Shown: positions 18,391 to 64,000 of the stretch, in pieces
How positions within the stretch are numbered: position 1 is the first letter of the stretch
Layout of the letters: each line of letters opens with the position of its first letter
Source: Balanoglossus misakiensis
Taxonomy: Eukaryota > Animalia > Hemichordata
DNA length: 64,000 nucleotides
Direction of reading: 5' to 3'
Assembly: GCA_040954595.2 (NCBI GenBank)
Contig: CM082578.2
Coordinates: forward strand, 4,074,831 to 4,138,830
Notes under the pieces: generated by a model
Databases searched by the model: none
What the model was told of the DNA's origin: nothing
Seen by the model: only the letters and a program-made list of their open reading frames with translations
Translations under genes and position numbers: made by a program

Positions 18391-18399
18391 AGAAGACAG

Positions 18400-27054: not shown

Positions 27055-28596
27055 TCATGATATTTGACCAAAATTAGACAAAGTAGTAGTTGCAGTAGAA
27101 ATACACTTCACCGAAGCGAGGGATTTCTTCGACACAAATCCCACCAGATATGGAACCCAAGAAAACGCACCTGAGAATGCGTGTGGACATTCCGACTCCT
27201 AACAAATAAAACAAAACAAACCAAAACATACATCGTTAATATTCAGGCACAAAATATAATATATAAACGTTAATATCGCAAATTTCTGGTCGTGTGAGAA
27301 AAAGAATCTCACACACTCGTCGGGATATTTTGTTGGGGATTTTTTGTCCCACACGAGCCAGCAAAAAATCCCCAACTCGTGTGAGAAATACGATCCCAGG
27401 TCCTTGGGAGTGTGAGATTATATTAATCACTTATTTTATATCCCCAACACATATGCAATTTGAGAGCAACATGAATGTGTCCAGAACGGTCCAGAATATA
27501 AAAAAAAATCATGAGAAGCTGTGCATGATCCAAGATGTACATACCTTACAATGAAAAAGACCAATTCCGTTGGCATAATTTATCACATCGCAACTCTGAC
27601 AACTGGAGATCAACTCGCTTCCATTCCCAGGACCCTGCATCCAATTAAATGAATAGGTCGGGTACACGATTAGCCAAACGTATATTGCGCTTTTGTATCT
27701 TATCCAAACTTGCGTAAATGATTCAGACACCAACGTTACCTTTAATATGAATGTTTGTCGCTTTCTCGAAACATGGACATTGCCCCCGTAGAGACCAGTC
27801 TTTCGAATATGTAGTACCCTACAAAAACAGTATGTATGGATGATGGCAAATCGGGAGCCTTACTATCATTGATTATAAACAGCCAGTATACGACATAATA
27901 CATAGCTGTTGACTTACCATATCAAGTTCCTCTAAATCAGAAGGGTGCTCTCCAGACAATACAACGACTAAACGGCGAATGTCACTCTTTAAATCCAAAG
28001 CGTACGAAAATGAACTCCGACTTCTTTCCTCTACATTGACGCCATTCATTTTGGCTACCAGCTCCGACGGGCACATGTTTCCTATACCGCCACATTCTAA
28101 GTAAGTCAAACCGTCCTCTGCATTGACGTCTATGTTGCATTTATTACAAGAGAGATCGTCGATCACGCCATTTTCTCTTTTCAGCAGGGCTCCACTCACA
28201 TGAATTGAAAATGACAAGGCTATTTCTGTGATAAGAAACCGTCGAAGTGTCTAAGATAAGAAACAGATAGTTAAATTGTCTCCCCCGTGTATGGAATGAC
28301 GTATTAAATATTAGTGATTATACTCTTACAAAGCCTGGGGTATGGCTTGCATGTGTTATCAGCTACACAGAAAACTGAACAAGAAACCCTTTATCTATTT
28401 TTCTGCAATCCAGATGGTAACATATATCCAATATGCCCTACGCTCTAAAAGTCCCTCCCACACATGACAAAAAAATATCAGCGTGAAGTCATTAATTAAG
28501 TCATAGATAATAAAATTTGGGGGTACAATTTGATCAAATCCTCATTCACATATGAATATTACTAGTATGTTCCACTTGAAAATGCACACTTACCAT
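27055..28596 (-). CDS. Small secreted cysteine-rich protein, paralog 2 (last exon frameshifted; possible pseudogene or null allele)
   Basis: Exons 28596-28594, 28250-27918, 27634-27545 and 27198-27055. A 22 bp deletion after SWVP shifts the frame. The ancestral frame (ISGGICVEEIPRFGEVYFYCNYYFV*) is still visible, with its stop at 27074-27076. Confidence 0.8.
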
Positions 28597-34628: not shown

Positions 34629-37600
34629 CTACACATCGCAAGCATAATACTCTTTGAGGGGTGACAATAATCGCTTGACAAGAGGCAAACTCCAGGCTGT
34701 ACACAGTAAGTGCTGTTGGACGTCTTCATCCAGGGTATCAACGTCTGCGTAGTGTTCTGGAAAACCAAACAACCTGTACGGATGCAACAGAAAATACGGG
34801 GACATCATCATTATAGAGGTGTCACTGCTGAAGATCTATCCTACCGGTATTGTGAGACCCTAAATGCTACTTGGTGTCCAATCTGATTAAAATCAGATGT
34901 AGGGAACGGCGACTTGGTTTTTTTATGCTGTCGCCTCACACTACATCTGACCAACTCTCAATGGAGATCCCGCTGAACTCTCGCGTTCCGACCCGGCCAA
35001 TCAGATTGCGTGTTATGCCGACTAAAGAATTGCACTGGGAGATGGGAGAAATGTTGTTGTTGACTTCGAGTATCGCACAGAATACGAAAGATTGGCTTTC
35101 TCTTGTGAACAATTACATGTAATCCCATGGTATCTTTCTTTGTTTGGCGTCATCGTATGCGAGTGGTTTTCGTAGAGCAGTGAAACGTCGAGCTGTAGCC
35201 ATATACAAATGATGAACTGTCGTTGATCATTTATAAACTCTCCTAACAAGTCATGTTCGCCCTCGTATAGTCGTAGTCATGCTGCCTGTCGGGAAAATGA
35301 CGTACTTCATGTAAAAGTTTATAAAAAATAAACCAAATTTCACTGCCATGTATCCCAAAACAATTTATGTGACATATTTTTAAAAAGAACGCTAACTTCG
35401 GCTAAGGAATGTCAAGTCAATGCTCCGCGTTCAGGTCTGTGTGTTCCCGACGCACCACAGCCCTGCATAAGGCCCCATAGACAAAACTGGTGCGTCTGCA
35501 GTCCGGACCCGGACGCCCGACCGCAGCTTTTTCTGTCGAAATTCGATTTTATCGAAGCAAAATCCTTTCCCTGTCTACTTCAACCGACCCCAAATATGAT
35601 GCGATTAACTTCTCCTAACGTCCGTGTAACGCCGGGAACACACAGACCTACACGCAGAGCTAGTCAAGTCAGTGCACTCTCGTGTATACAAACGATCGTG
35701 GCGACAGAATCTCTCCCTGGGACGGCCTTGCACAAATGTAATCGATTCTCTAACAATTTTACTGCGACTTGTTGCCACGTCTTATACATTTCATTGACCA
35801 GTGGAATATAGAGGTTCATTCGTCACGCTGAACTGGCTCGAAATCATTCCCCACGCTGATTCGACTCTCGCGCCCGGGATATATGTCTGTGGTAGCTCCA
35901 TGGTAACAACCGAAAGGGGCCAGGTCATGTGATTGTGGGTTGCCTATCGTTTGCTATAAGGAGCCTTCTGATTGGATTAGATTCCCAGTAATTCTCGTAG
36001 AGTTCAGCGAGATCTCCATTGAGAGTTGGTCAGATGTAGTGTGAGGCGACAGCATAAAAAAACCAAGTCGCCGTTCCCTACATCTGATTTTAATCAGATT
36101 GCTTGGTGTCATACCTGTTTAGAGTGTCAAGTCCCTTAACATACGTATTTGCCACTTTTTCTTCTGAAACATATTTTGACTGTCTTGACATGGCTCTCAT
36201 ACGTACTTAGACACACTTGGCAGTCTGAGCCCCCTGTAAAATGTACCAAATCGCACTAATTTGCACTGTATTGGTCTGAGGGTCTTGTATATTGGTCCTA
36301 CTGATTAACACACACTTGGCAGTCTAACAGGCCTGGGAGCCACGATTCTAGGCACCCTGGAAATCAAACCAGTTTCAACTGACTTGGCAGCATTAGGGTT
36401 AATGGAGACACAATTTTTTTTTCAAGAATCCTATAGAATCACAGACTTTACAATACTTTAAAGACCTTCACAAAGGAGCTTATGTTACACTTTTTTCTGT
36501 CTGTCAATCTGTCCGTGTCATCATTATCCCCAGGCTAAACAGATTTGAAGCAAACCTGGTGGACAGTAATTGATTTGGAATGGCCAGACATGATTAGATT
36601 GTCATGGCTGTGGTTTGCATAACATTATCGAAGACCAAACCTCTTTAATGAAGGTTATCTACTACGGGGCGACGGCTTGGAATTACTGAATAAAGACTGA
36701 CTACTATTGAGGGATTACACAAGAAAAAGTCTACACCGGAGTACATGGCCATGTACAGACAGACAGACACACACACACACACACATAGAGAGAGATCAAT
36801 GGGCAAACACCCCATAAGCTGCCAATGGCATATGTACTGTACATACACTAAATAGAACAGCTGGTCTCTTAAGAAGTTAGCCAGTTATGTAATCATGCAG
36901 GAATTTGCTGTGTATACAAATCTCAGGAGGGGGTTCCTGCCTATAATTACAAAGAACTCAATAAAGTAAATACACACCACTTTGCAAAGCAATCTGACCA
37001 GTAGTTCTCGAGTTACTGAGTTTTGACCAAATTCACATTTTTCCAGCTAATTTGCATATTTTTGGCAATGACAACTTCATTTGAACAAACTCCTATCTAC
37101 AGCCCAGCCTGCATCTGCACACCAAATATCAAGGTGATACACGCAGTGGTTTTCAAGTTTTTGATGTTGACGGACATACAGACATCCATCCATCCATACA
37201 GACGCAACTGATCCCATGGTATAAACCAATGGGACCTACAAATCTCACGATCGACTGTCTATATTGCCAAGCAATTTGAACGGAGTATTCACAATTCTGT
37301 AATGTAAAAGAAACATTCACTACTAATCTATTAAGACTTGATAAAATACAATTCTTCGATATCAAATGACGTCAGACGCGATCAGGTGGCAGTTGCGTTG
37401 GCATTCAAATTTCCAGATGACGGGCAACTTCAGCAACATGAACTTACATGGTGCAGGCAAAGACTGTGCAGATGAAACGCCATGAGACTGATGAGGCACC
37501 ATACCTGAATACATGTTACATGTCTGGCAGTTCTAAAGTAAAAACATACTCGGAAAAACTTTTATTGGATGCCGAAATATTGCTTGTCCGTCATCTGGAA

Positions 37601-40600
37601 ATGACAACGCCGTGGGTCACATGGCCAGATCACGTGATTGATAGTACAGAATATTGAAGCAAAAAACCCCCTGTGGGTTACACACTAGATTTGGATTATT
37701 ATTCTCATTTGAGCACCACATGCATACCTTTCAAACTCTATGTTCCATAATTCATCATATTCATCCCCAACTTTCACGGGCAAGTTCACCTTTCCAACCT
37801 CCCTTGCATAAGACTTGGTCACGATTGTTTGCAGCTGGTCGACCTGTGGGCAAAGATCAAATGAACAAGGTGGGTATTGATTCAAGGTTGTAACTCCAGC
37901 AACAAACATAGGTCAAACTCTAACGGGAATGCACACGCACCTAAAATGTTAACATAAAAATACCTAAATTAGGGTCAAGATGGACAATGGCGGTTGCATA
38001 ATATGGGGATTATTTTCCACACGGCTTTTGTACAACAAGTACATGTAGTTCAAGTCCAGTGTTATTTCCAAGGGGTTGTACTGTCTGCCTACCCATGAAC
38101 CTCCAGTCTTTTCCAGGTTAACTTCAGCATTTGAAGCATTTTCGTACAGCTGCAGGCATGATATAAATCTTTGACTGGTGGGGCCCTATGCCCCTCAAGG
38201 CCAAAAATGTCTGGTTATTTTAAGAAAGAATGGGGTCATACCAAAATCAATTGTCTAATAACACAGAATGCACTTATTACATACCAATATGTAAGACCCC
38301 ACATAGACCCGATCTGAGACCATATTCTGAGAGTCTCAAATGTGAGTAAATGCTATCTGAGACCGCATTTGAGACTGCTTTGGAGACTCTCAGATACAAT
38401 GTAAACTGCAATTGAGACCGTATTGGAGATCGCTTTTGAGACTCTCAGCTTGCGTTTAAATGCTAATTGAGAGTGTACATGTAACAATCAACAACACACA
38501 ACATTGCCCATAATCAATGAAAGTATCGCGTCTGTATCACGTATAACTTAACTCCTCACGAGACTTCAATTCACTGTCTTGCTGTCCGATATCGCGATGA
38601 AGTTCAGTGCTAAGCGTTTGTTAGCGGAATCTGCTACACAAGAGTGTTTCCTGACAAATCGAAAGAGGAAACTTTGTGTCGCTCCCCCGAAAACTGACGA
38701 ATGATTTTTGCATGCATGTACACACACGATCGATACCTGCCATGATTCAACACTGCCACACACACACTTGTACTTTATTCACTCAAAAGAAAACAACAAG
38801 CTATGGTACTAGTATTTACATTTAAATCAGTGATAAAGAAACAGTCGGTGGTTACTAGTTGATTGCAAATAGACTGGTGAATACAAATACTAAAAGAGAA
38901 ACTCGCAAAAATTTCCCAGCCTAAAAAGAATCCCGTTTTACAGTAGCTTATCTTATAATAGGGTACTGCACACAATTTAACGTCGGTGACACAAAGATCT
39001 ATCTAGTGAGATTGACATGTGTATAAAACAAATGATCAAAGACCCGCAAAGTCGCCCTTTTGTGGATATATATATTTTCTGTAATGCCGTACATTGACGC
39101 CCCGTTCACACATATTGTTGCCGTATTGTTGTTGAGTTTGCCGATGATACAGACTCCCAATCTCATGAATGAAAAAACAGTTCACACTTCGCATGGAAAT
39201 TGTTCTTTTCATTTTGATTCTCCGAAACCATTTGAAAAAATCATCGTTTTTTTCAATTGAGCTTCAATTTCTACCTTCCTCAGTGTGATTGTATACGCCT
39301 TGACCCCTTCACGAACTTCCACTGTTTAGGTAAGAGCAGTCATGGATAGTGGCTACGTTGCGGCGACATTCGATTCGTGACCTCATTAAACCCGACGGCA
39401 GTTGCCTCTAGTACATGTAATTCTTTCCTTACTTCTTTTAGCTTTGAAGTGACGTACGTGTTAAAACTGACCTCCTCTGGGTGGGAGTCCGTTTACAAAA
39501 TGAACAACTTTCTATAAATCTAAGATTAAAAAAGGGCAATGTAAGCCTTTATCATATAATGACAAACGTGAAACATTATTGAAAAAAAATTATTTTATTA
39601 CAACTTTAAAGCTTTTACCCAACTTTACATGTATTGTGACAGATGTTTGTATCGGCAGCGAAAAAAACTGCATTGGTATGGTCGAGTTATCGGGACCATA
39701 CTTGACAACATTTTTATTTTGTCTTACATGTAAGCCGGCCTCACTCTGCTTCGGCGATAGAGAGAGATCAATAGATCTACGATTACTATAGTAACCGTTG
39801 ACACGTCCTAGCGTCTACGTATAACACTACCACGTCATTCACTCAACTCTTTTGTCGGCCCCGGAAACAAAGTTGCCCGTGAGTTAGTTCATTGTTCCAC
39901 GGTCGACGCGTGGGTCATGGAGTGACTTGATCGTTTATTACAATGTCAAGTCATAGTACAAGTACAATTACTAGTAACTTCTGGTCGCCCATGTACAATT
40001 ATACTCATCGTATGTTATAACCGACGCCCGGTATTCGGGCTATGTCTGTACGTTTTGAGATAATTACTAGTAGATAGATCTAATATCTTAAAAAAGGACA
40101 CACAGCACGACATTTCACCGCACCGCGCTGTCGGTCGCTCCGATCTGCATGATGTACGTGAGCTCTCTACAGATCGTGTCGCGCACCATTCGCCCTTGTA
40201 AAAACTTGACGCCCTCGTTTGAAAGCTGAGAAAATGTCCTATCTTATAGTCAGAACCGATTACAAAACATTCAACTCCAATATATGAGATGATGTCCAGT
40301 ACGGCATGCACAACTTTTGAGAGACCGTGGAAGAATTAACATCTCGATCGCCATAAAGGCTGGGTGTTAGGTCATCTTTATTACTGTAACTTCTGTTGGC
40401 TCGATATGACGAAGTTGACGGTCTCAATTAGCATTTAAACGCAAGCTGAGAGTCTCAAAAGCGATCTCCAATACGGTCTCAATTGCAGTTTACATTGTAT
40501 CTGAGAGTCTCCAAAGCAGTCTCAAATGCAGTCTCAGATAGCATTTACTCACATTTGAGACTCTCAGAATATGGTCTCAGATCGGGTCTATGTGGGGTCT

Positions 40601-43600
40601 TACATACCTCCATACCAGGCATTATATGGTCAGTTGTATATGATGTTTTTATGGCAAAGTAATGTAAATGGAACATTTGAATATGAACTGCACAGTAATG
40701 AACTTTCAGCAGCTTTTGCAGGCTCAAATTGTAATTACGGACTTGACATTCTCAACTGCCTTCTGAAATTCTGGAATCATAGAATCTGCAAGTACTGCAG
40801 CCTTGTGATCATTACTGTCTGCATGACAAGTGAGAGTACTTGTACGGAAATTCACGTTCGCCCCAGTCATCGTATTTCGTTTATTATTTTCGCGGTTAAA
40901 ATGCAGCCATTTAAAATCTTGAAGCCATTCATCTTGAAATGCAATTTGATTAACTTTCACTAATGTCCGAAGTCGCTCGCTTTCTGAAACCTTTTGTACT
41001 TTTGTATATATTCACCCGTGGAGATCACATACTGAATGCAACGCTCACTCATCCCCAGGAGAACACCATTAACAACGATGTTAACGGCATAAGTAGAAGT
41101 TAATCGCATCATTATTGGCGTCAGTTTGGAGGTAGAGGTAAAGGCAGGGAAAGGATTGTGCCCCGACAAAATTGAATTTCGGCTGAAAAAGCTGCGGACA
41201 TGATGCGGGCCGCAGATGCGCAATTTTGGTCTATGGAGCCTTGCAGGGCTGTGGTGGGGAGTGCCTATAACACAAGGAACACACAGAACCGTACACAGGG
41301 ATAACTATTCTATGTGCTTGTGAAGCTCATATTTAAAGGCAATAGATCGTCTCACGCGCATGGGTATAGCCAGCAAATGTTCAGCAAATTTTCCATTCGA
41401 TGCATTTAAATAGTGGACTGCCTTCACTTCCTTCCATACGGTATTTCATGCGCACCGTATAAGTAGATTCTGGTTTTGTCCCTCGTTTTCACCCAAGCTA
41501 GTGTCTTTTCACGATCTCCGACACAGATTATGGTCGCCGCCATCTTCTCTGTTGTTAGGACAGAGCACTGCCTTATGGGATTGACTGTTCACTACACGTC
41601 TGTAACCAGTGGCTACAGTTGGAACATGCGTGTGAGACGAGCTAGGCGCTTTAACCTGCTGTATGGAGATAGACAGCAATCTGTTTTCTGGCAACATACA
41701 TGTATAGAAATAGATGCTTAGGATTACCTGTGCTATTCTGTTCAGGTTGGGTTCTAAGCAATCTTGCACTGTTTGCCGCTGCTCCATTCTGTGAAAACTT
41801 TGTCTGCAAGAAATATGCTTGTAAGATTGCTTGGCTTCAAATCCATGAAATGCATAATGTGACTTTAATCACATGCATAGCTTCACGTAACTAGAGTACC
41901 ACATCAAAGTATGGTAATATGTAGTCTTGCTCCAAGACTGTGTGATACTGAAATGCGCGTCCGCGTTACGCATTGAACGTCCTGTGGACCCGACGCTAAT
42001 CACACAGTCTTGCCGATTCTGTAAACGCCCTCAAGTGGTTTTACCAGATTTTGGTAAGTAGCGGAGAACATTCAAACTTCATATGTCTGTCAATCAAACT
42101 AGCGTCGCGTCCACCTGATGTTCTATACGCGTACATACCACGTACAGAATACCCATTTTTGGACGTTATCGCGAGCGTGTGTGCGCTTCTAGATGTTCTA
42201 TATGCGAATTAACGCCGCTCATGAATATTCATATCAAATATATGTGTACATAAACGTACAGTCGCTCTGCCTGGCGACGCATCATACGCAGTCTGATGAA
42301 AGTTCCATTCTTATCGACAGGCACAGCGACTGCTATAGTGTCTAGGTAATATGGTGCAAATTATATTGTTATACTTCTTCTAACATCACCAGCTAAACTT
42401 CTTTTAGCTTGTAAACAGAATACTCTTTGGTCAACAAATCACACATAGGGACGTGTCTCATTGGCTGAGATTGCTTTCTCAATGGCCAAATACAAACTGT
42501 GGTTAAAACAACTGAGGAAGCATATAAGCATCAAGCTATCAAATAACCACAGGAACAATACCGGTAATGGTGAGACAAAGCGATGGTACCACAGACGAAC
42601 CAGACACTTATCCCATTATGTAAAATGTCCATGCATAGCTGGATCAATACATAACTATGAGACCTAAATCACCTGTTAGATGGGACAGCATAACATTGAC
42701 ACAATACAAGTCTCACAAGATCATCTTTCTATCATATATCCATGCCAATTTCTATAATCGCGACATTTTTTGATTTCTCAGTTCAAGATTCGATTTCACA
42801 ATGCAACATTTGATTTCCAAATCTCCAGTACATGCAATTCTATCTGCCAAACTTGACTAATGTAACTCACTCCTGTATGGTCTCCCTGAGAAATGGAATG
42901 TTGCATTGTGAAATGGAATCTTGAACTGAGAAATGGAATGTTGCATTGTGAAATGGAATCTTGAACTGAGAAATGGAATGTTGCATTGTGAAATGGAATC
43001 TTGAACTGAGAAATGGAATGGTGCATTGTGAAATGGAATCTTGAACTGAGAAATGGAATGGTGCATTGTGAAATGGAATCTTGAACTGAGAAATGGAATG
43101 TTGCGTTGTGGAATGGAATCTTGAACTGAGAAATGGAATGTTGCGATGTGGAATGGAATCTTGAACTGAGAAATGGAATGTTGCGTTGTGAAATGGAATG
43201 TTGAACTGAGAAATGGAATGTCGCGTTGTGAAATGGAATCTTGAACTGAGAAATGGAATGTCGCGTTGTGAAATGGAATCTTGAACTGAGAAATGGAATG
43301 TTGCATTGTGAAATGGAATCTTGAACTGAGATATGGAATGTTGCGTTGTGAAATGGAATCTTGAACTGAGATATGGAATGTTGCGTTGTGAAATGGAATG
43401 TTGAACTGAGATATGGAATGTTGCGTTGTGAAATGGAATCTTGAACTGAAAAATGGAATGTTGCGTTGTGAAATGGAATCTTGAACTGAGAAATGGAATG
43501 TTGCATTGTGAAATGGAATCTTGAACTGAGAAATGGAATGTTGCCTTGTGAAATGGAATGTTGAACTGAGATATGGAATGTTGCGTTGTGAAATGGAATG

Positions 43601-46600
43601 TTGAACTGAGATATGGAATGTTGCGTTGTGAAATGGAATCTTGAACTGAAAAATGGAATGTTGCGTTGTGAAATGGAATCTTGAACTGAGATATGGAATG
43701 TTGCGTTGTGAAATGGAATGTTGAACTGAGATATGGAATGTTGCGTTGTGAAATGGAATCTTGAACTGAAAAATGGAATGTTGCGTTGTGAAATGGAATC
43801 TTGAACTGAGATATGGAATGTTGCGTTGTGAAATGGAATGTTGAACTGAGATATGGAATGTTGCGTTGTGAAATGGAATCTTGAACTGAAAAATGGAATG
43901 TTGCCTTGTGAAATGGAATCTTGAACTGAGAAATGGAATGTTGCATTGTGAAATGGAATCTTGAACTGAGAAATGGAATGTTGCCTTGTGAAATAGAATG
44001 TTGAACTGAGAAATGGAATGTTGCGTTGTGAAATGGAATGTTGAACTGAGAAATGGAATGTTGCATTGTGGAATGGAATGTTGAACTGAGAAATGGAATG
44101 TTGCCTTGTGAAATGGAATCTTGAACTGAGAAATGGAATGTTGCGTTGTGAAATGGAATCTTGAACTGAGAAATGGAATGTCGCATTGTGAAATGGAATG
44201 TTGAACTGAGAAATGGAATGTTGCATTGTGAAATGGAATGTTGAACTGAGAAATGGAATGTTGCGTTGTGAAATGGAATGTTGAACTGAGAAATGGAATG
44301 TCGCGTTGTGAAATGGAATCTTGAACTGAGAAATGGAATGTCGCATTGTGAAATGGAATGTTGAACTGAGAAATGGAATGTCGCATTGTGAAATGGAATC
44401 TTGAACTGAGAAATGGAATGTCGCATTGTGAAATGGAATCTTGAACTGAGAAATGGAATGTTGCCTTGTGAAATAGAATGTTGAACTGAGAAATGGAATG
44501 TTGCGTTGTGGAATGGAATGTTGAACTGAGAAATGGAATGTTGCATTGTGGAATGGAATGTTGAACTGAGAAATGGAATGTTGCGTTGTGGAATGGAATG
44601 TTGAACTGAGAAATGGAATGTTGCGTTGTGAAATGGAATGTTGAACTGAGAAATGGAATGTTGCATTGTGAAATGGAATCTTGAACTGAGAAATGGAATG
44701 TCGCGTTGTGGAATGGAATGTTGAACTGAGAAATAGAATGTCGCATTGTGAAATGGAATGTTGAACTGAGAAATGGAATGTCGCATTGTGAAATGGAATG
44801 AAATTGAATGTTGAACTGAGAAATGGAATGTTGCATTGTGAAATGGAATCTTGAACTGAGAAATGGAATGTCGCGTTGTGGAATGGAATGTTGAACTGAG
44901 AAATAGAATGTTGCATTGTGAAATGGAATCTTGAACTGAGAAATGGAATGTTGCGTTGAGCAATGGAATGTTGAACTGAGAAATGGAATGTTGCGTTGTG
45001 AAATGGAATGTTGAACTGAGAAATGGAATGTTGCGTTGTGAAATGGAATGTTGAACTGAGAAATGGAATGTTGAACTGAGAAATAGAATGTTGCATTGTG
45101 AAATGGAATGTTGAACTGAGAAATGGAATGTTGCGTTATGAAATGGAATCTTGAACTGAGAAATGGAATGTTGCGTTGTGAAATGGAATCTTGAACTGAG
45201 AAATGGAATGTTGCGTTGTGAAATGGAATGTTGAACTGAGAAATGGAATGTTGCATTTTGAAATGGAATGTTGAACTGAGAAATAGAATGTTGCATTGTG
45301 AAATGGAATGTTGAACTGAGAAATGGAATGTTGTTGAGGAATGGAATGTTGCGTTGTGAAATGGAATGTTGAACTGAGAAATGGAATGTTGCGTTGTGAA
45401 ATGGAATGTTGAACTGAGAAATGGAATGTTGCGTTGTGAAATGGAATGTTGAACTGAGAAATGGAATGTTGCGTTGTGAAATGGAATGTTGAACTGAGAA
45501 ATGGAATGTTGCATTGTGAAAGGGAATGTTGAACTGAGAAATGGAATGTTGCGTTGTGAAATGGAATGTTGAACTGAGAAATGGAATGTTGCATTGTGAA
45601 ATGGAATCTTGAACTGAGAAATGGAATGTCGCGTTGTGGAATGGAATGTTGAACTGAGAAATAGAATGTCGCATTGTGAAATGGAATGTTGAACTGAGAA
45701 ATGGAATGTCGCATTGTGAAATGGAATGAAATTGAATGTTGAACTGAGAAATGGAATGTTGCATTGTGAAATGGAATCTTGAACTGAGAAATGGAATGTC
45801 GCGTTGTGGAATGGAATGTTGAACTGAGAAATAGAATGTTGCATTGTGAAATGGAATCTTGAACTGAGAAATGGAATGTTGCGTTGAGCAATGGAATGTT
45901 GAACTGAGAAATGGAATGTTGCGTTGTGAAATGGAATGTTGAACTGAGAAATGGAATGTTGCGTTGTGAAATGGAATGTTGAACTGAGAAATGGAATGTT
46001 GAACTGAGAAATAGAATGTTGCATTGTGAAATGGAATGTTGAACTGAGAAATGGAATGTTGCGTTATGAAATGGAATCTTGAACTGAGAAATGGAATGTT
46101 GCGTTGTGAAATGGAATCTTGAACTGAGAAATGGAATGTTGCGTTGTGAAATGGAATGTTGAACTGAGAAATGGAATGTTGCATTTTGAAATGGAATGTT
46201 GAACTGAGAAATAGAATGTTGCATTGTGAAATGGAATGTTGAACTGAGAAATGGAATGTTGTTGAGGAATGGAATGTTGCGTTGTGAAATGGAATGTTGA
46301 ACTGAGAAATGGAATGTTGCGTTGTGAAATGGAATGTTGAACTGAGAAATGGAACGTTGCGTTGTGAAATGGAATGTTGAACTGAGAAATGGAATGTTGC
46401 GTTGTGAAATGGAATGTTGAACTGAGAAATGGAATGTTGCATTGTGAAAGGGAATGTTGAACTGAGAAATGGAATGTTGCGTTGTGAAATGGAATGTTGA
46501 ACTGAGAAATGGAATGTTGCATTGTGAAATGGAATGTTGAACTGAGAAATGGAATGTTGCATTGTGAAATGGAATGTTGAACTGAGAAATGGAATGTTGC

Positions 46601-52600: not shown

Positions 52601-55600
52601 TTTGCTGTGTTTTTCTGACATTATCAGGAAACTGGCGAGGAATTCTGAAATGTTTATGCATTTTCACATCAATTCAATGTCAAGGTTACTTGGCCTTAAA
52701 GGGACAAAGTCTCTCTCTCGCTGCCCTTTTTCCATTAATTATTTTAGATTCAAGACACTGTTTATGTCAATGTACATGTGTGTATGTAGTGAATGAACTT
52801 TCAATGCACACAAATTCCATCCTGCTTGTATGATATGACAGTAAAAACTCGCCCAAAATGAATAAATGGTAAACACCGATTATTCATTTTGGCGAGTTTT
52901 TCACTCTCGTGTCTGCAAGTGGGATGGAAGCTGTCTATGGTCGAACATTGATTCACTATATATCTACATGTAGAATAACATAAACTGTGTCTTGTATCAA
53001 ACATAATTAATGGAAAAGGGGCAGCGAGAGAGAGACTTTGTCCCTTTAATAGCTCCATCTTGTTAGCCTTTAGTGTTTATTAATCTCCCACAAACAGAGC
53101 AAAATAACCAGATGCTTGACTTCATATGCAATGCAGGGATATAAATGTCAATATACAAGTTTTAACCAGAAAATCTTGCAGTGTTTTCACAAAAGTGTTA
53201 TCCTTGGCTAACAAGTAAATTTTCAGTACACTTAAATAAGAAATATATAAAGGAACTTTTGCTTCACCATGTGTTTCAAAAGGAAGGTGGGTTTCTGTCA
53301 AAAACAATAGCCAAACACCGTCAAAGTTGCATATCGCTGGTAAATTTCCAAATTTCACAGCAAAATGGACAAGGTGTTTCTGAGATATAATTTTTGACCA
53401 AAAATGGCACTGACAAGTTGCACTTCTCCAAGTAGAGACCTTTCAACTATATATAACACTTACATTTTGCCATGATATTTCACTGACATCACCTACGAAA
53501 GTGATGGCATCAGAATGATGTGCTGCGGCTACAGTAATGGCTTCTGGGTTGACTTCAGTGGCAAAATAACACTCAACTTTAATACCAAGCTTCTTCAGAC
53601 TCACCAGGACTTGTAAAATAAATCATAAACAGCATGACATGCATTATTATGTAAAACAACATCATGTAACAGAAGTCTTAAGCTTGGCTTTGTTCAAGAT
53701 AATAATCCCCAACATTTAAAGGATCGAAGTCTCTCTCTCGCCCCCCTTTTTTCATTAATTATATTTGATACAAGACACCATTTATGTTATTCTACATGTG
53801 GATATATAGTGAATCAACGTTCGACCACACACAACTTCCATCCTTTTTGTAGGATATGAGAGTATAAATCTTGCCAAAATGAATAAATTTTGGCAAGGTT
53901 TTACTCTCATATCATAAAAGCAGGTTTGAAGTTGTGTGTGGTTGAATGTTTATTTACTATATATCCACATGAATAACATAAACGGTGTCTTGTATCAAAT
54001 ATAATTAATGGAAAAAGGGGGGGGCGAGAGAGAGAAATCCCTTTAATTCCAATTTCAATTTGTGTACGATACGTTACCCTGAGCAAAATAATGAAGTATC
54101 CCTACAATAAACTCTGCCTCATCAGGATATCAGGCCCCAACTCAGCGTGCATATATATCATTCTGAATTTAATGTACAAAAGACAATTGCAAAAAAATTG
54201 GGAAATAAATGTTGTTCAGGTATATGTTACAGTTGGGTGAAATGCTGACAACTGACGTTTCAACTTTCTAGTTCCAGTATCATTAACAATGTAGCGAATG
54301 AAGTACAGAAACATCATGAAAGAGATTGTGCTAGTTTTGCGTGCACACATTGTAATTTTGCAGTAATATAATTGGGGTGAGTGAAAATCTGTACAAACTT
54401 GCATACAGACTATTATCCCATGAGCTTCCCCAGTATATAGTGTAACATATGGGAGTTTTTAGTCATAAAATTCTACTGTTAAAGGTGTGACTATTATAGA
54501 AGCAATGGACGACGCCCTGACCAGAAACGTTTGTTTAAGGGCGAGGGGAAAGCCAAAAATTCATAGGCGAGGCTCGCGAGCCCATGAATTTTGGCTTTCC
54601 TCGAGCCCGAGCCCATAAACAAACGTTAATGGTCAGGGCGGAGTCAGTTATTTCCACTATATTACCAACGAACTCAAGAAAACCGTCAAAATTTACGAAA
54701 ATGTCCCACGCACAAGACTAGGCGCCCCGGAACTTGTGTTACGCAAAATGTTGTATTTACTGAACTGTTTGTTAATTTTACTATTCAGATTTACGGGCAT
54801 AAAACAAACCATTACTGAGTATTTGTGGTCAGTGACGTTGTTCATCTCGACCAATTAAAATGCGACAACGCACAGGCCATGGTACCGGTATTATAATTGG
54901 TTATATTGGTCAAAAGAGTCCACAAACCTGGTGAAATGCCATCAAACAGTGACAAGACTCTGATTGGTCTTCGCTGCCAGACTGGAATAATCTGGAATTC
55001 GTCCATGTATGTGACTGTCTGGCAAGTGTCATCACTCTTCATGAGCTGATAAAGATTCTCTCTCCAGTCTTTTCTGCGTCTCAAAAACCCATTTACACAC
55101 TTCTGTTTACACATGAAACAGGTCCACGAATCATTCTGCAGTTCCTGACAGAGAAAACATTTCTGTAATTCAGTCCCAGTAATATGTGAGCTTATCTAAT
55201 ATTCGATGTGGTGACACTGGCCTGACTAACGGACACAACTGTGTCGTAAAGCATCAACTGACAACTTTTTGAAGTACCCTTCTTTCTCGTTTGAAAGCAT
55301 ATCTTTTGGTAGAGGCAAGCAAAGCACAATATTCAAACCAGAGATCCTGCTAGCCAAAGACAAGCACAACATTTTTTCTCTCATATAAGACTACTACATG
55401 CCCTCTGTACAATACTACCTGGGTTCCCGCTGCCGCTCATAAATGGCGTAAATTATGACAAAAATCAGATTTTCATGACAAATTATCAGAGAAGGTTGGT
55501 ATTTTTACGAGAGAAAACAATCAGCTGGGGGCATCATTGACAGCACATAATCAATTCATTCCGGCATCAAAGTTGTCGAGTGGTTCTAAAAATTAACTTC

Positions 55601-58600
55601 CACAGTACCGGTACATGAAAAGTTGGTTGACCTGCACCTCACGTATTATGTCAATTGTCATATTCGTGATTAGCTGAGACACTCTCATATAACATAGCAA
55701 AAAAAAGTGATAGTGATATAACATGGCAAGAGTTGATAAAGCCCTGTTGATATTGCCAGCTGGGTTGTTTTGGTGTTCTGCGAATGACTTGTAACAAACT
55801 GTCATTCAATGACTTCCTCCACGATCAGTCAACTCCCGCATCTATGGCTTCAAAGCGACACACAGGCTTAACACCTGTTCAACTGGACGATATTTTACCG
55901 CAAACGGACAGTAAATACACCAAAATTGCAACCAACAGGGCAGTATCCTCAAAATTATCTGAGTTTGAAGTAAGTATATACACCTACAGTTTTTGGGAGG
56001 TCGAGACATTTTAGTTCACTGCAATGCAACGCACAACGTTCTTCTATGTTGTATGACTGTTCAAATGTTCGGTGTAATAAAATTAATAACACATGATGCT
56101 CTGGCAACATCACGATTTGAAGCCTCAGCCTGCCCTTGGGATGGTGCTCTCTGACCATAATATTGATGATGCCCGAGCCACAGAAGATCACCATCCCTCG
56201 TGCAGGCTTCAAATCATGATGTTGCCCTCGCTATCATGTGTTATTATTTAAATATGTTGCAATTGTTTTTATCAGTGTACTCAAAGGTCACAATTTGAGA
56301 CAAACAGAGCAAGGTCAACAACCTAGTCAACGTATGAAAATGACACTGATGTGGGGATGGTGATTTTCGAATACCTACACTAGGGCCTACACATTCATAA
56401 ATTTTGACACCATGTTGTGGGAAAGTTTTTAAAGCAAAATTTACGCGTGACTACAGAAACATGTTGCAAAAGGCAAGACAAATTCTGACACTTGGGAACA
56501 TTGAGATCGTACTGGTGAACTTCCTAGCCCTGCCTGCAGGTCTGTGTCAGTGCATGTGTGTTCTCGGTGTTACACCGCTGCAATGATGGGAGGCTTTAGG
56601 GCTTCCCAGCTGGCAAGACTTATTGGCTGGAAACCTAACTCCAAAAAGGTTGGATTTTCCAAATTTTCACTTTCCTCAGCAAAAAGATGATTCGTGCAAC
56701 GGATGATGTGGAACATGGTTTGCTTTACAGAAAATCACGAACAAGTAAACAGTCAGCTTCGTAGAGCAGCATTCAACACGCTAAACAACTCTCGCCGTTT
56801 GCAACACGCCATTTTTTTCCAAGTCCACGTTTTGTCGGACAAACGATTTCTGACGGTTCGACAGACAGTGGGTATAGACACGTCTGCTTGCGAAAATTCC
56901 GCCAATTTTTGTTGAATTTCTTCGTATGAAATCAAAAGGAGTTTGTCGTTTTAAATACTCGATATATTGCTCTTCATCATTAGGAAGTTTCCTTGGTTGT
57001 CAGTGCAAAACATCCTCATACAAGGTTCAGAGAGACTACAGACAATCTCACAGTGGGATTACGAACGTTTGAAACGGTAACTTTGTTGCAAAATAAACAA
57101 AGTGCGGTATTCAGTTTCATGAACTTAGACGTTTTTTCTTATCATTTGAGACGTTTATTGTAACACTCGAACACAAAGAATTTCCAAGGTATTTTGAAAA
57201 TGGTAGTATATGGTGCGCATGAAATACATGTCTGGAAGGAAGCGAAGGCAGTCCACTATTTGAATGCATTGAACGGAAAATTTGCTGGGAAGTTATGTGC
57301 ATGCGCGTGAGACAATCTATTGCCTTTAAGGACTTACTATATAAATACCAGTACCGTTTCTTATATTTACTGCACAATTAATTTCTTTAATAACACATAC
57401 CTTCTGATATGTACCGTGACCAACTAAGATGTCCAGACAGGAAGAGCAAAACACTTGGTTGCAGCATGTACGACCACATTGTAACAGTTCATCATTTTCT
57501 GAACAGACGGCACAGAAAGCCTGTAAAATACAAAAACATTTTTTTTACTGTCACATTTTTACAAAGCGTATGTATTATAAACAGAGTAAGCTATTGAAAA
57601 CCAAACCCTGCCTAAACTGGTAACCTTTCTGAACTGGACATACCACCCCCCCCCCCCACCCCCTGTACCTTAAAACCCCCTCCAAAGAGGCAACTACTAG
57701 TATGCTTATACATGGCCTGTAAATTGAAGGTTTCACAGTCCCTATGAACACTATATACTGTACAGGTATACTGAAATGTCAACTCTTGACAGAAGATCAT
57801 ACGTATGCACAGACAGACAATGACAGACAACCAACATATCTGATAAGCTCCTCACCATTGACAGCAGAGCTAAAAACATTATGCTACAACTCCATTAAAA
57901 AGATGCAGCTAACCCCAAATTTTTGTCTCAGAGTTAGACAAGTAATGTACACACAAGGTAGGCAAGATCCAGGCTTTTGCTGCCTGACCAGAGCCAGTAC
58001 TGAGCTAAAAATTGTAACATCATGGCTGCCTGGCAGTATTGGACATGTATCATGAAAACAAATGTATCATGAAATGATGTGCATTCCATCTTGAAATATT
58101 GAGTTGGGTCAAATTTGTACATGCAACAAGTTTGTACGATAATTTTCTTTCCAAATAAACTTACCCGATAACCATTAACATCATACAGGAAAGCAGTTTC
58201 CATAAAATCCACCTAAAATGAGAAAATGAACATTTTTGAGATATGTTTCTTTCAGTCATGCGGCAGGGCCAGCACTGACATTTGCAAAGAAATGGATGAA
58301 GTGGCAAAAAAATATGTATTCACAACGTGTTGCAAACAGTAAGTCACAGAAGTTGAGTTCAATTCTCCCTACCTTAAATAGGGTTTTCCTACCTAGGTGA
58401 GTGACAAAAATTCCACATGGTAAACATAATTTTGGCCAAGTTTAAGAAATGGGAGTTCATAAGCTGAAGTGATATTCGGTCATTCTGATAATTTGTAACT
58501 GAGAAAAATACAAAAATGTAAATAAAGGTGACTGGCTTTTAATAATTTGTCAATTACAAAGGCAGAAATGTTTGACCAAAGGAAGTCATAAAATACAGTA

Positions 58601-61600
58601 AACATATCATTTACATATCTCTTACTACAGTGAGTTGTCGACTTTCACCCAAAATGCAATTATTATAATGTGATTTGACCCCCGAGCACAAAGTGAAAAC
58701 CTATTTAAGGCAGCCAGAATTACTAGCTTAGCAACTACATGACGTCTACTATCTGCAACTCACGTATAGCAAGGTGTACTCTGAATATCCCAGATGTATC
58801 AAGTACTGTTTAGAGGTCAAAAAATGTTTACATTATTATACATCTAGCACCAAGAACAATAGAATTTAGCGTGCACTAAAAAAGCCGTACGGAACGGTAC
58901 GTACGGAACGCCTGTTAAATACGCCTTAAGTTTCAAGGCGCCCCAACTCACTGTGTACAGGTATGCGGACGGTTTCAAGACACCCCCACCCCAACGCACG
59001 TAAACAAAAAAGAAAGATGGCTGCTCACTGCTCAAGTCAACTGAGCGGTTTTCGATCGATTGTATCAGCATTTTGGGCCTTTTGAAAGCCAAGTAACATG
59101 CAACACAAGAACTAACGGAGATGTAAGATGTATAATAATAAGGTTATTACGAAAATACCGCAAAGTATGCACGAGGACATTAGCGCAGCGCGTCGGGCGA
59201 TACTGGGCGCTAATGTCCTCGTGCATACTTTGCGGTATTTTCGTAATAACCTCATAGTATACACTGCTTATGTAGACTCTATCAAAGACTGGCGTTAAAC
59301 AAGGTTAAAAGCGCCAAACAATGCACAAGGCCTATACCCCTTCTGCTCCAGCAAAACCATTGAAAAATTCTCATGTAAAAAAACAAAGAAACAGCTAAGG
59401 AGGAAGTTTTGAGGCAAGTCTGTACTGTCTGACTGTGAAATGTGTCTTAATATTTTAAAATTGGTGACATTGGGGCTGACTATTCCAGCAACACCAGTAG
59501 AATGATATGTGGCGGATCATTTTGGCATGTTGATTCATTGTGACACAACCTGTTTGTAGAAAAACCAGTTCTGTAATACCCGGTATGCTGAATACGGTCT
59601 GGACAACATTACGGTGGCCTTTACTCTACTACTTATCCCGCTCGTTTTGGGTCGCATTCCCATAGGAATGCAGTGATGGTGATTTCTCTCTTGTTCATAA
59701 CTTGATTAATTTGCTGCCTGCTGTCACTGATAACTAATCAGTTCTTGCCATTTGAAAATAAAACCAGTGTACCGAAGCTGATTGAAATCTGATCAGCCAT
59801 TGTTGAGATATTGTTCTAACAGACAGACAGACACACTTACACACACACACAAGGCGATAACATGTACTTGATCACGTACATGAGGTAAGAACAACTGATG
59901 TTAGAAATTTGCTGAGAACAGAGTCTGTGAGCAGACTGTTGGGAAATTGATACCACGGACGGGCCAGAGGATTTTAGCTCCAGAGAATTGTTAAAAATTA
60001 CAGTCAATTCTTTGTACAGGATACAAGAAATTTCGACAAATTGTTAAAGAATCAATGAAAACATAAACAGATAACTGATGCTGATGAAGAGGGGATGAAC
60101 AAACTCTGTCACAATCAATTGAGCCCAGTAATGGCTCTGATGGGTAATCATGCAATTGCCAGTGAAAAAGATAAGGTTTTGGTTTTGCATCTACAAGTTA
60201 GGCATGGCTGATGAAAATTACCTGTGGCTACAAAAAATTAGACTTCGGCAGTTTTCTTCAATTATCGACTAAATTCATAGCCTTGTACATGGTGATCAAC
60301 CCTTATTTTTTTATTATGGACTTTCATTGTACATACAAAGGAGAATCCAAAAATCCACAATTAAAAGAAATGACAATACTTTCATCCTTAGTTTAACCAC
60401 TGGTCAACTGTACCGGTACATAATACCTGACCTACCTTGCAATTCTCACACAGACCTCCCTCAAAGTATGGATGCTCAGTTACCACAGATTCATTTCCAC
60501 AAACCAGACAAAAATCTGTTGTAGAGAATTCAAAGAAATGCATGTACAAATGTATTTGTGCATTCATGACATTTGACACTTTAAAGTGACAAAGTCTCTC
60601 TCCCACTGCCCTTTAAGCATGAATTATGTTTGATAGACGATACCGTTTATGTTATTCTAGATGTGGCCAATATATAGTGAATCAACGTTCGACCACACAC
60701 GTACAACTTCTATCCTGTTTGTAGGATATGAGAGTAAAAACTTGCCCAAAATGAATAGATGGTAGAGACCAATTATTCATTTTGGTGATTTTTGTCACTC
60801 TCGTGTCTACAATTGGGATGGAAGTTGGTGTGTGGTCAAACGTTCATTCACTATATATCCACATGTACATTAATATAAACAGTGTTTTGTATCAAACATA
60901 ATTGATGAAAAAAGGGCTGCGAGAGAGAGACTTTGTCACTTTAATTAAAATGCTAATAATTCATGAAATGCATTTCAGTGTCAAGCGCTCAAAACAAATC
61001 TCTAATTTTGTCAATTGTGGGCCATGTTGAAAGTGTTATTTTCAAGAATACATTCACAGGGAAATGTTATGTTCAGAAATAGCTTTATATTGGTACTTTT
61101 AATAGGTCTTTTTGACATTACACATTACTTGTTATAACACACCATGCAGCGAACCCTCGATCGTGATTCGTCAATACGACGTCAGGTGACCTTAGTCATT
61201 TCGAACTGCTCCCTAGGGCATCAGTTTGGTCGGTTTGGTGTGTTATAAAACACTTGATGACTGACATATTCGGGCAACAGTGTATTTTTGATAACCTTGG
61301 GACTGCCAGTCACACGAAAACAAGACTGTTTTAGTTGTGACTAGCAGTGCCCTCGGTCATCAAAATACACTGTTGCCCTCATTGTCAGTCATCATGTGTA
61401 TATTGAAACATAAGGTACACCTCGAAGCTCATCAAAAATGCCAAGTAGGTCACATTGAAAACTGCATTAATTTTGCTTCTCATCAAAGCAAACTTGGCAT
61501 CGCGTAGCTTGCGCTTGACAGTTTTTGATTGTCAGCATGGGCGCCGCCATCTTGGTTTGCCATAACCAAAGAAAAGTGACCTAGCCATGACCCCATTTTA

Positions 61601-63731
61601 GGAATACGTGCTCCACCAAGCATTTGACACACAGCAGCGCGCTGGGCCGCAGCAAAATATACAATCTTCTCTCATTGTGTCAAAATAATGCGTAACATTA
61701 CGAGAACTAGGAAAACGATTCTTTCTCTTAATAGAAGTCGTTCCATTAAATTCTATAGAAAATAAAACAGAAGTCATATAATGGAACCACAATGAGTATA
61801 TTCTTACCCTTCATCTGTTTTTCCCCTTCTTTAACAGCATTCACATTCGCTTCTCTGCACTCTTTCTTTATGTTCACTGTGCATTGAGTATGAAACAAAA
61901 CAATTATTAAAACTGAAATAAATATTAATTTCTGAGAAACCATCATGATTTCTTGGGTACCTGAGACTATCCCCATCTAGTTAAAGGGACAACGTCTCTC
62001 TCTAGCTGCCCTTTTTTCATGCATTTTGTTTGAAACAAGACACCGTTTATGTTTTTCTACACGTGGATATATGGAGAATCAACATTCAACGACACACAAC
62101 TTCCATCCCGTTTGTAAGATATGACAGTAAAAATCCCGCCAAAATGAATAAATGGTAAACACCGATTATTAATTTTGGTGAGTTTTTCACTCTCGTGTCT
62201 ACAAGTTGGATAGATGTTGTGTGTGGTTGAATGTTGATTCACTATATATCCACATGTAGAAAAATATGTAAACGGTGTCTTGTTCCAAATATAATTAATG
62301 GAAAACGGGCAGCGAGAGAGATTGTCCCTTTAAAGTGACGTTTGTATTTAGTCAGTATGTGACTGCTTCCTTCAAGATGGATATATGGCGGGCGCCAAAT
62401 GTGGAGAAAGATTTGCTGACTATTTTTGAAACACACGACTTCCTCATCATTTTTGCCATAGGTTCATAATCTGTCTTTCACGGACTTTACTTTGTTCTGT
62501 GTTTTCTTGATAGTCTCTATCGTTTTGTGACTGTCTCTGCAACTGGTGGTGTAAATACTGTATATTTGACCTATGAACCCATTGTTTGGTAAAGTTGCAC
62601 CTCTAAAGAGGGGACTGGGGTGAAAGGGTTATTAATTAAGCTTTTCCTGCAATAAAAAAAATTGCCACTGGCCAAAAAAATGCAGAAGGAATCTTCAAGA
62701 AATTGCAGCTACCAAATCTTTGTTCAAAGGCGCTGTTCAAATTATATAGCAAATCTCATATTAAAGCCAAATTTATTTCGTATACTTAGGGCTTGCTTGA
62801 GAGAGCCAGGGGCAAGTGGTGGAAAGCCATCTAAGGCCCAGCTGACCAATATCTCATGCTGTTCCTTCAACTTTAAAGGCGGAAATTCTTGGCCAACTCG
62901 ATGTGCATCTACCTGGAATTGTGAGATAAAAGTGAAATGTGTCAAGCTGATGCAACTCTTTAGTACAAGGGGCCTTTAAAACAAATCCATGGTAAAAAGG
63001 AATTTCTTTGTTGGTTGCAATTTCACACTAGTCTACAAACTCATGCAAATTTCGCAAGTGCCGTAGCCAGATATGGATACTTTTCTTGTGTCATCAGTGA
63101 GCTTAGAAGAAAACTGGTGTGTTAAGTTACTTTATCAATCAATAATCTATCCCATTTGGGGCAATCAGCATTGCACCAATGCCATACACAACTATATATG
63201 AACTGATATGTGAATTGCTTATAATTGACAAAGACTACAAATGCAATAATCAGTGTTTACAATTTATTCATTTTGGCGAGATTTTCACTCTCATATGGGA
63301 TCCTACAAACGTGATGGAAGTTGTGTGTGGTCGAACGTTGATTTACCATATATCCACATGTAGGAATAACATAAACGGTGTCTTGTATCAAACATAGTTA
63401 CTAGAAAAAGAGCAGTGAGAGAGAGACTTTGTCCCTTTAAACTGAGTGCGACTGAGAATTTTAACATGAATCTGAATCCCAAATGTTTCATTTTTCTTAC
63501 CCAAAATCAACCCAGTGTTTTTCTGTTGTGACTGCCCGACAAACTCCATACTAAAATCAGAATGCAGTATTTCAACAAACATGTATTATGCCACAGCATA
63601 GACCAGTCTGCGTATATACTTACCACAATGGCACTGAGCACAGCACATCGGTATAAAGGCATCTTATTAAACGAACTTCTATGAAAATATTCATTGAAGT
63701 CTTTGAAGTGTTTCAAATTCTTTGTTTTGAC
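34629..63731 (-). CDS. DNMT3: DNMT3-family protein (PWWP-ADD-methyltransferase fold), predicted catalytically inactive; 5' end outside the window
   Basis: 14 GT-AG exons splice in one frame (534 aa + stop): 63731-63624, 62912-62786, 61876-61808, 60515-60436, 58212-58165, 57520-57401, 55144-54928, 53609-53464, 52384-52267, 51710-51562, 50840-50755, 41803-41728, 37843-37728, 34773-34629. The donor at 62786 is the weakest. Hallmarks: FNKMPLYR and WALDGFPP (PWWP end), FCLVCG..HPYFEGGLC (ADD), RPIRVLSLFDGI, WGPIDLLI, RPLFWLFE, RYFWGNLPGMNR, FGFPEHY, PLKEYYAC. Confidence 0.93.
34879..36101. mobile_element. Non-autonomous Mutator-like element (~90 bp TIRs, 9 bp TSD) in the last DNMT3 intron
   Basis: TIR caatctgattaaaatcagatgtagggaacggcgac... 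at both ends. TSD cttggtgtc at 34870-34878 and 36102-36110. Confidence 0.9.
38288..40606. mobile_element. 2.3 kb non-autonomous DNA transposon with ~185 bp TIRs rich in GAGAC subrepeats
   Basis: 38288-38472 is a near-perfect reverse complement of 40422-40606. No transposase ORF is visible inside. Confidence 0.88.
40724..40960 (-). pseudogene. Fragment of a hAT/ZNF862-like TTF zinc finger (transposase N-terminus)
   Basis: FQDEWLQDFKWLHF...NFRTSTLTCHADSNDHKAAV. Confidence 0.55.
41333..41654. mobile_element. TTAA-flanked MITE (family also at ~965-1107 and ~57297-57330)
   Basis: ttaaaggcaatagatcgtctcacgcgcatg...catgcgtgtgagacgagctaggcgctttaa. The right half matches 965-1107. Confidence 0.7.
42886..50678. 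repeat. Intronic minisatellite, 40 bp unit (two diverged 20-mers, GAAATGGAATG core), ~7.8 kb
   Basis: The unit CTGAGAAATGGAATGTTGCGTTGTGAAATGGAATGTTGAA repeats throughout, between DNMT3 exons 50755-50840 and 41728-41803. Confidence 0.98.
51198..51376. mobile_element. Tc1/pogo-type MITE (TA TSD, CAGTC termini)
   Basis: TA-cagtcaaacctgt...acaggtttgactg-TA with internal gaccacct repeats. Confidence 0.8.
52696..53049. mobile_element. TTAA hairpin MITE, copy 2
   Basis: Same TIRs as 33778-34125. Confidence 0.85.
53716..54046. mobile_element. TTAA hairpin MITE, copy 3
   Basis: Same family, diverged TIRs. Confidence 0.8.
54495..54662. repeat. Imperfect hairpin element
   Basis: cgccctgacca..aaagccaaaaattcat / atgaattttggctttc..tggtcagggcg. 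Confidence 0.55.
58372..58710. mobile_element. MITE with CCTTAAATAGG TIRs, copy 2
   Basis: Inverted copy of 31589-31930. Confidence 0.75.
59141..59252. repeat. Near-perfect palindrome (~46 bp arms), probable MITE
   Basis: aggttattacgaaaataccgcaaagtatgcacgaggacattagcgc ... gcgctaatgtcctcgtgcatactttgcggtattttcgtaataacct. Confidence 0.8.
60581..60944. mobile_element. TTAA hairpin MITE, copy 4
   Basis: ttaaagtgacaaagtctctctc...gagagagactttgtcactttaa. Confidence 0.85.
61250..61400. repeat. Hairpin element
   Basis: gatgactgaca..gggcaacagtgtatttt / aaaatacactgttgccc..tgtcagtcatc. Confidence 0.6.
61981..62333. mobile_element. TTAA hairpin MITE, copy 5
   Basis: Same TIRs and TTAA flanks as copy 1. 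Confidence 0.85.
63248..63440. mobile_element. TTAA hairpin MITE, copy 6 (right half only)
   Basis: Ends gagagagactttgtccctttaa. The left arm is absent. Confidence 0.75.
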
Positions 63732-64000
63732 CTGTATTAAAAGAAGTAACATGTTTTGTCAACCCACCATTCAGACTACATTCAGCAAATAAAAGACAAG
63801 TTTCCGTTTGCGCTGGCAAAAAGAATACGGTGTCAATGATCTCATAGATATATGAGGTGTGTGGGTATCACTGGTTTTTAAAAGAAAAATAACTGTACTA
63901 ACTTTACTCATAGCAAAGGTGAGTCAATTTGAAAATCTTAATTTTGACAATAACATGGAGTGCAGTTTACAGACGTCAATGGAGGGTAGTATATTGAAGT

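Follow-up and report, generated by a model that had tools for sequence, protein, structure and literature searches.

An intact DNMT3 paralog without the motif IV Pro-Cys in an acorn-worm clade: a candidate non-catalytic accessory subunit

What does a DNMT3 gene encode when its reading frame is intact and its catalytic centre is gone? This question is raised by a 64,000-nt stretch of DNA from the acorn worm Balanoglossus misakiensis (the window), whose minus strand carries an intact DNMT3 paralog without the Pro-Cys of motif IV, belonging to an acorn-worm clade with three genes of Ptychodera flava. We infer, with somewhat more confidence than doubt, that the product serves an active DNMT3 as a non-catalytic accessory subunit.

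Fourteen exons on the minus strand are predicted to splice into 1605 nt (534 aa plus a stop) with no internal stop, and all 13 introns are GT-AG, which bears out the single open frame noted in a preliminary description of this locus. Twelve exons were placed by tblastn with mouse DNMT3B (P0049), which is identical to the spliced model at 214 of 520 aligned positions (41%), and the quoted motifs were located by a six-frame search; the exon at 41803-41728 came from a splice-site scan, and that at 61876-61808 was read directly off the sequence. The gene extends upstream past the window edge, and its first exon in the window, encoding a 36-residue tail of the PWWP region, matches an alternatively included 36-aa segment of a P. 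flava relative. The features are listed below in gene order, with residues numbered as in human DNMT3A (set via whale DNMT3A, P0364, by its C-terminus).

63624-63731 (-): exon of 108 nt, C-terminal helices of the PWWP region (tblastn)
62786-62912 (-): exon, end of the PWWP region, with a weak donor at the homologous position
61808-61876 (-): exon, helix before the ADD, read from the sequence
60436-60515 (-): exon, GATA-like finger of the ADD (Pfam PF17980, E=1.5e-11)
58165-58212 (-): exon, H3-binding segment of the ADD, D529 kept, D531N (tblastn)
57401-57520 (-): exon, PHD finger of the ADD (Pfam PF21255, E=1.2e-09)
54928-55144 (-): exon, end of the ADD, linker and motif I (tblastn)
53464-53609 (-): exon, motifs II-III, E664 and D686 kept (tblastn)
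52267-52384 (-): exon, motif IV in degenerate form (S708C, P709Q, C710V), with a longer loop rich in Lys
51562-51710 (-): exon, FF-interface helices (F732, E733, Y735, R736, R771 and F772 kept) and motif VI as FESE
50755-50840 (-): exon, motif VIII, R790 and R792 kept (tblastn)
42886-50686: satellite in an intron, 194 copies of a 40-bp unit over 7.8 kb
41728-41803 (-): exon between motif VIII and the TRD, with an in-frame alternative acceptor at 41788
37728-37843 (-): exon, TRD loop (T834V, N838Y) and motif IX (tblastn)
34629-34773 (-): last coding exon, acidic RD segment (R882E, R885Q, R887H), motif X (G890C) and stop

One exon may be absent from the model, since the donor at 62786 is weak and the relatives have a linker about 35-40 aa longer. 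Three candidates for such an exon, listed between 62785 and 61877, do not resemble the relatives' linker. A strong donor-like site (CAA/GTGAGT) at 52340 sits inside the motif IV exon. Its use was considered and rejected: the frame would shift, and the equally lengthened loop of the P. flava relatives speaks for reading through the site. DNA contigs of run X1, which is possibly the window's own source and hence not independent support, span six exons including those of motifs I, IV and VI without a differing letter (the contig at 52009-52720 covers the motif IV exon with no difference), and the changes in these motifs are therefore not assembly errors. The contig comparison covered the repeat-swamped interval 50700-64000, with 40 of the 537 differences listed; among those listed, one at 63625, in X1 only, changes Val to Ala. 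The satellite array shows a strong strand skew, and its stop-free frames of ~2000 codons are not genes. A short dispersed repeat of high copy number recurs many times in the introns at 52.7-63.4 kb, as seen in the depth profile.

Motif IV aligns without gaps to solved DNMT3A and DNMT3B chains and reads S708C, P709Q and C710V, so that the nucleophilic Pro-Cys is replaced by Gln-Val, followed by a Lys-rich loop about nine residues longer. The claim that Pro-Cys is gone is thus confirmed, and the alternative exon that might have restored it was not found: no PC-type motif IV occurs in the six frames of the whole 64-kb window, and none of the ten alternative exons listed for 52340-51711 supplies PC. 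The other degenerate motifs also read as first described and at the same places, with FDGISPV for motif I across the 54928/53609 junction, FESE for motif VI and LLCTAW for motif X. In motif VI the Glu is kept, and N757S and V758E replace the ENV pattern in all four members of the clade. The Cys noted two positions before the lost one is present in this gene (S708C), but only two of the four clade members have it, the others having Ser. The residues kept in the window's gene are E756, R790, R792, W893 and, on the SAM side in motifs I-III, the F-D-G of motif I, E664 and D686; among these, E756, R792, F-D-G and E664 are kept in all four members. A new Cys at 890 is found in all three members that reach that position. 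The roles of F640, E664, D686, E756, R790, R792 and W893, in DNMT3A numbering, are presumed here. The dead catalytic loop at 52384-52267 contains a Lys/Arg run, which we take to resemble a nuclear localisation signal pattern, and two P. flava copies are also Lys-rich there. The roles of C710, of the three DNA-contact segments and of the R885-D876 bridge follow the available part of PMC7210271, and the part of PMC2965745 at hand calls the motif IV Cys essential. Judged from the sequence, canonical catalysis is very probably absent from this protein.

The methyltransferase (MTase) fold is otherwise retained. Its motifs are in order, identity to 15 canonical DNMT3s is 37-46% over ~280 positions, and the best PDB matches are DNMT3 chains. 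Since the whole fold is kept, the lesions are easy to read: the catalytic and DNA faces are lost and the FF face is kept. Among the 15 canonical proteins 86 positions are invariant, 85 of which align with the window's gene. In the catalytic loop, the loop of the TRD and the RD segment, the three DNA-contact segments defined after PMC7210271 (in part), the gene retains 1 of 13 invariant residues; at the other positions it retains 54 of 72 (Fisher p=7e-6, with adjacent sites not independent of each other). The loss of catalytic residues is targeted, as had been proposed, and takes in the DNA-contact residues. The same contrast in the P. flava copies gives p=0.004, 0.018 and 0.06, the third not significant. 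F732, R736 and F772 as FF residues, and the roles of R882 and R887, are taken from the available part of PMC10908127. The FF surface, to which DNMT3L binds, is intact in the window's gene (F732, E733, Y735, R736, R771 and F772 are kept, the register at 729-731 being uncertain), and the RD surface has become acidic through R882E, R885Q and R887H, which remove the salt-bridge partner and DNA contacts. The charge of the RD segment is -5, as against +2 to +3, and the net charge of the MTase-like domain is -14, compared with +4 in DNMT3A. In the window's gene a kept FF interface is thus paired with a lost RD interface. Some FF residues differ in the P. flava copies (F732 to L/H/V, Y735 to H/Y/H, F772 to L/F/L); FF docking therefore may not be the common role of the clade.

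The zinc fingers of the ADD are retained. Both of its fingers score above the Pfam cut-offs (PF17980 and PF21255) and all 12 of its Cys are kept. In its H3-binding segment D529 is kept and D531 is replaced by Asn; these we take to be H3-reading positions, and D531N may weaken the reading of H3K4. The roles of the PWWP cage residues are likewise assumed. That the gene keeps PWWP, as first described, is probable: the tail lies in the window and PWWP is present in the three P. flava relatives, but most of the domain would lie outside the window, where the claim rests on the relatives because only the last 36 residues of the region are inside. Pfam PWWP has no match in the window's gene, and the W-W-P motif does not occur in the gene's part of the window. 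All three P. flava relatives match Pfam PWWP, and these copies keep the PWWP cage residues and all 12 ADD Cys.

A homology search over 1.84 billion representatives gave 71 matches; in the first homology search, the best 120 of 369 were mammalian DNMT3B/3C and unnamed rows only. By whole-model bit score P0133 reaches 491 and P0121 435, the best canonical protein 382, and P0128, which is C-terminally short, carries the same motifs at 351 bits. These three are RefSeq proteins of P. flava, apparently from three loci on two long contigs, and RefSeq labels the three genes only as DNMT3A-like or uncharacterized (XP_070555444.1; XP_070579606.1, isoforms X1-X5; XP_070580695.1). They lack PC and carry PWWP and ADD; none of the three matches Pfam DNA_methylase, which is matched in a sea-star protein. 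Like the window's gene, they have the derived motifs I, IV, VI and X and the lengthened loop. They are 47-54% identical to it in the MTase domain and differ in that FF residues, R790 and D686 (the last two in all three) are changed, whereas all are kept in the window's gene. Eighteen derived states are common to these four genes and absent from the 15 canonical DNMT3s. FESE-type motif VI occurs in seven proteins, all from P. flava and from three loci, among the 441 proteins fetched; the clade-specific query searches covered proteins of at least ~720 aa, and further members may be missed. One P. flava locus has five RefSeq isoforms, which are taken to imply transcript support for it, and isoform X5 skips the PWWP core. 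Comparison of P0121 with P0309, P0201, P0308 and P0310 shows one P. flava dead-DNMT3 locus with full, truncated or no PWWP; splicing may therefore switch this locus between DNMT3B3-like and DNMT3L-like layouts.

In a 28-row tree of ADD and MTase, the window's gene and the three P. flava genes form one clade (support 100/100), placed among invertebrate deuterostomes (85/87), and DNMT3L falls inside vertebrates (97/99). The clade also holds in an ADD-only tree (100/99), which has no canonical hemichordate row and could partly reflect taxon; it used 21 of 26 rows, five having been dropped where the motif I pattern failed. The proposal of an origin independent of DNMT3L fares unevenly: the free tree separates the two, but the AU test does not reject their union (p=0.058 for ADD+MTase, p=0.41 for ADD). 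On sequence grounds a separate origin is favoured but not proven. The alternative that the clade descends, together with vertebrate DNMT3L, from a dead ancestor produced by a deuterostome duplication, and is not convergent, draws on that same failure to reject. It would have to account for the positions in the free tree and for differing lesions, DNMT3L having lost F-D-G in motif I, the Glu of motif VI and its C-terminal motifs, all of which the clade keeps; long branches, too, attract each other, and we consider this alternative very improbable. DNMT3L was introduced in the preliminary description as an amniote gene, which agrees with its published dating (PMC7814119, in part). DNMT3L-like proteins were, however, seen in two sharks (P0184, P0438, P0439); of these P0184 falls together with amniote DNMT3L at 100/100 in the tree, which runs counter to the amniote origin in the available part of PMC7814119.

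Long selection on the dead state would follow from the sequence data, because the terminal branch of the window's gene carries 0.6 changes per column, whereas in a simulation of neutral substitution the frame stayed open in 0 of 500 copies at 10% change and in 49% at 1%; very recent relaxation is still allowed. The 18 shared derived states and the common clade with P. flava therefore point to an old selected lineage rather than to recent decay. Coding CpG across codon boundaries numbers 16 against 32.9 expected, a value as low being reached in 0 of 5000 shuffles, and GpC is not depleted. The observed/expected CpG ratio is 0.58 over 50.7-64 kb against 0.84 over 0-34 kb, but reaches 0.83 in the 3' introns. 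Methylated gene bodies go with stable transcription in annelids (PMC11292947, in part), and the CpG depletion fits a gene-body-methylated, transcribed gene, which gives weak indirect support for expression.

How might such a protein act? As an accessory subunit, it would dock on an active DNMT3 through its FF helices, its acidic RD face could neither extend a filament nor grip DNA, and it would thus cap a DNMT3L-type heterotetramer as the outer subunit. The ADD and the probable upstream PWWP would add reading of the H3 tail and H3K36me, and such histone reading would help to target or stabilise the active enzyme. The earlier suggestion of a selected regulatory or scaffold subunit gains from the preserved frame, the targeted loss, the intact FF surface and a dead state that three P. 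flava genes have conserved, but no active partner appeared among the P. flava matches listed. Neither the best 120 of 1958 matches nor the best 120 of 1855 included an active P. flava DNMT3; this absence is weak because canonical proteins of lancelet and purple urchin are also missing from the best 120 of 1855. Two DNMT3 pieces from Saccoglossus have canonical motifs I, VIII, RD and X, with motifs IV and VI not visible (supplement of PMC8330077, in part), and an active partner therefore plausibly exists in acorn worms. Against the accessory reading, the kept E756, R792, motif I F-D-G and E664 are not obviously needed by a pure scaffold, and loss of DNMT3.1 in Daphnia pointed, in the available part of PMC8016896, to a role apart from DNA methylation.

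These last points lead to other readings of the same protein. Through PWWP and ADD it could act as a reader of chromatin or as a repressor, with no need of catalysis or of an active DNMT3, the canonical DNMT3 being possibly lost or minor. All P. flava DNMT3s retrieved (seven proteins, three loci, among 441 fetched) are of the dead type with no canonical one among the matches listed, FF drifts in the P. flava copies while the PWWP cage and the 12 ADD Cys are kept, and the methylation-independent role suggested for Daphnia DNMT3.1 (PMC8016896, in part) agrees with such a function. However, the P. flava count covers the best 120 rows, where known canonical proteins are missing too, canonical-type pieces are kept in Saccoglossus, and the window's gene has a complete FF surface and a full-length fold; we regard this reading as rather unlikely, if worth keeping in mind. 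Less likely still is its extension, by which in some acorn worms an expanded family of dead DNMT3s, full-length and with PWWP, outlived or replaced the active de novo enzyme as pure chromatin readers. If this were true, the expansion (three P. flava loci, none canonical among the matches listed) would fall in the deuterostome lineage closest to echinoderms.

The gene might instead be a formerly functional dead paralog that has become redundant, or a recent pseudogene, in this species. The weak donor, the short linker, the strong competing donor in motif IV and the 7.8-kb intronic satellite fit decay of this kind, as does the simulation, in which 49% of neutral copies are still open at 1% divergence; the 13 GT-AG introns, the lack of a stop or frameshift, the 12 of 12 ADD Cys, the depletion of coding CpG and the intact relatives at ~50% identity make it quite improbable. 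Retention of E756, R790, R792, F-D-G, E664, D686 and W893 in the window's gene, with the new Cys 890 in three of three members reaching it, could also be taken to mean an atypical active enzyme that uses a shifted cysteine or another substrate. Activity through the shifted Cys was rejected, since only two of four members have Cys 708 and the rest have Ser; none of the three P. flava copies keeps R790 or D686, the face that would bind DNA is acidic, Pfam DNA_methylase matches the sea-star protein and none of the three from P. flava, and PMC2965745 (in part) calls the Cys of motif IV essential. An active enzyme is accordingly a very slight prospect, and the accessory subunit remains the reading that we prefer.

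The concept of an invertebrate DNMT3L-like protein is not new, Daphnia DNMT3.1 and aphid Dnmt3x being PWWP-bearing precedents. In the available part of PMC8016896, Daphnia magna DNMT3.1 is an invertebrate paralog with a diverged MTase that is likened to DNMT3L and proposed as partner of the intact paralog; PWWP is absent from that other paralog, so that DNMT3.1 is the PWWP-bearing one, as in the acorn-worm clade. It differs in being an arthropod protein, tested by CRISPR, and far more eroded, lacking five of six motifs, and it is likened here by description, not by sequence (PMC8016896, in part). Aphid Dnmt3x keeps PWWP and ADD, misses activity residues, is at least 106 My old and has been proposed as Dnmt3L-like; it is an insect gene with germ-line expression shown, and its split from the other paralog is described as subfunctionalisation (bioRxiv 10.1101/2024.02.14.579807, in part). 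Vertebrate DNMT3L resembles the window's gene in having no PC, a kept ADD, a kept FF and no RD dimer surface (PMC10908127, in part). The acorn-worm clade differs from it in keeping the full-length fold and, in the relatives, PWWP; the DNMT3L traits of no PWWP and a truncated catalytic C-terminus are not found here, a PWWP tail and motifs VIII-X being present.

The DNMT3B3 isoform is an inactive, PWWP-bearing accessory at the outer FF position that anchors to the nucleosome acidic patch by R740 and R743 (PMC8891314, in part). The suggested resemblance to it fails at these arginines, which map to Glu and Gln in the window's gene in the 6pa7_N and 9lq1_A alignments. DNMT3B3 is also a product of splicing and keeps PC. 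Plant DRM3 belongs to a conserved dead-paralog clade in which motif IV has no Pro-Cys and motif X lacks a glycine, and both lesions recur in the window's gene; DRM3 is of the DRM family, with rearranged motifs, UBA domains and an independent origin, and is needed genetically for methylation (PMC2965745, in part). Vertebrates and plants have known dead DNMT3 helpers, Daphnia and aphids proposed ones, and the acorn-worm genes would add a multi-copy case from invertebrate deuterostomes. In this clade nature provides a clean test of two questions, whether tetramer capping of the DNMT3L type evolves repeatedly and what such a subunit gains from PWWP. Counts of DNMT3 genes would overstate the de novo methylation capacity of acorn worms. 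The gene is a real, well-preserved pseudoenzyme and apparently unreported: no account of dead hemichordate DNMT3s was found in the open papers and preprint texts covered. In the parts available, PMC11618098 had no text on methylation, bioRxiv 2020.04.09.033167 and PMC8821070 had nothing relevant, and the supplements of PMC10538959 had no hemichordate row.

Outside the DNMT3 gene, the window holds several other elements. At 11245-16060 lies an element with 184-nt direct repeats at both ends that are 99% identical. Its minus-strand ORFs include a long one, one resembling an aspartyl protease and one for a TatD DNase (Pfam E=3e-14). Among the three ORFs scanned, none matched a reverse transcriptase. 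The whole resembles a non-autonomous LTR element of recent date with a TatD-like nuclease, an unusual combination. A broken LINE-like retroelement with endonuclease and reverse-transcriptase ORFs follows at 17603-21360 (+). Two related open stretches on the minus strand, 24889-25287 and 27876-28250, are 46% identical over 120 aa and have no Pfam match; they are probably either exons from a nearby repeat-domain gene or paralogs in tandem. A 51-nt inverted repeat is present at 16692-16834.
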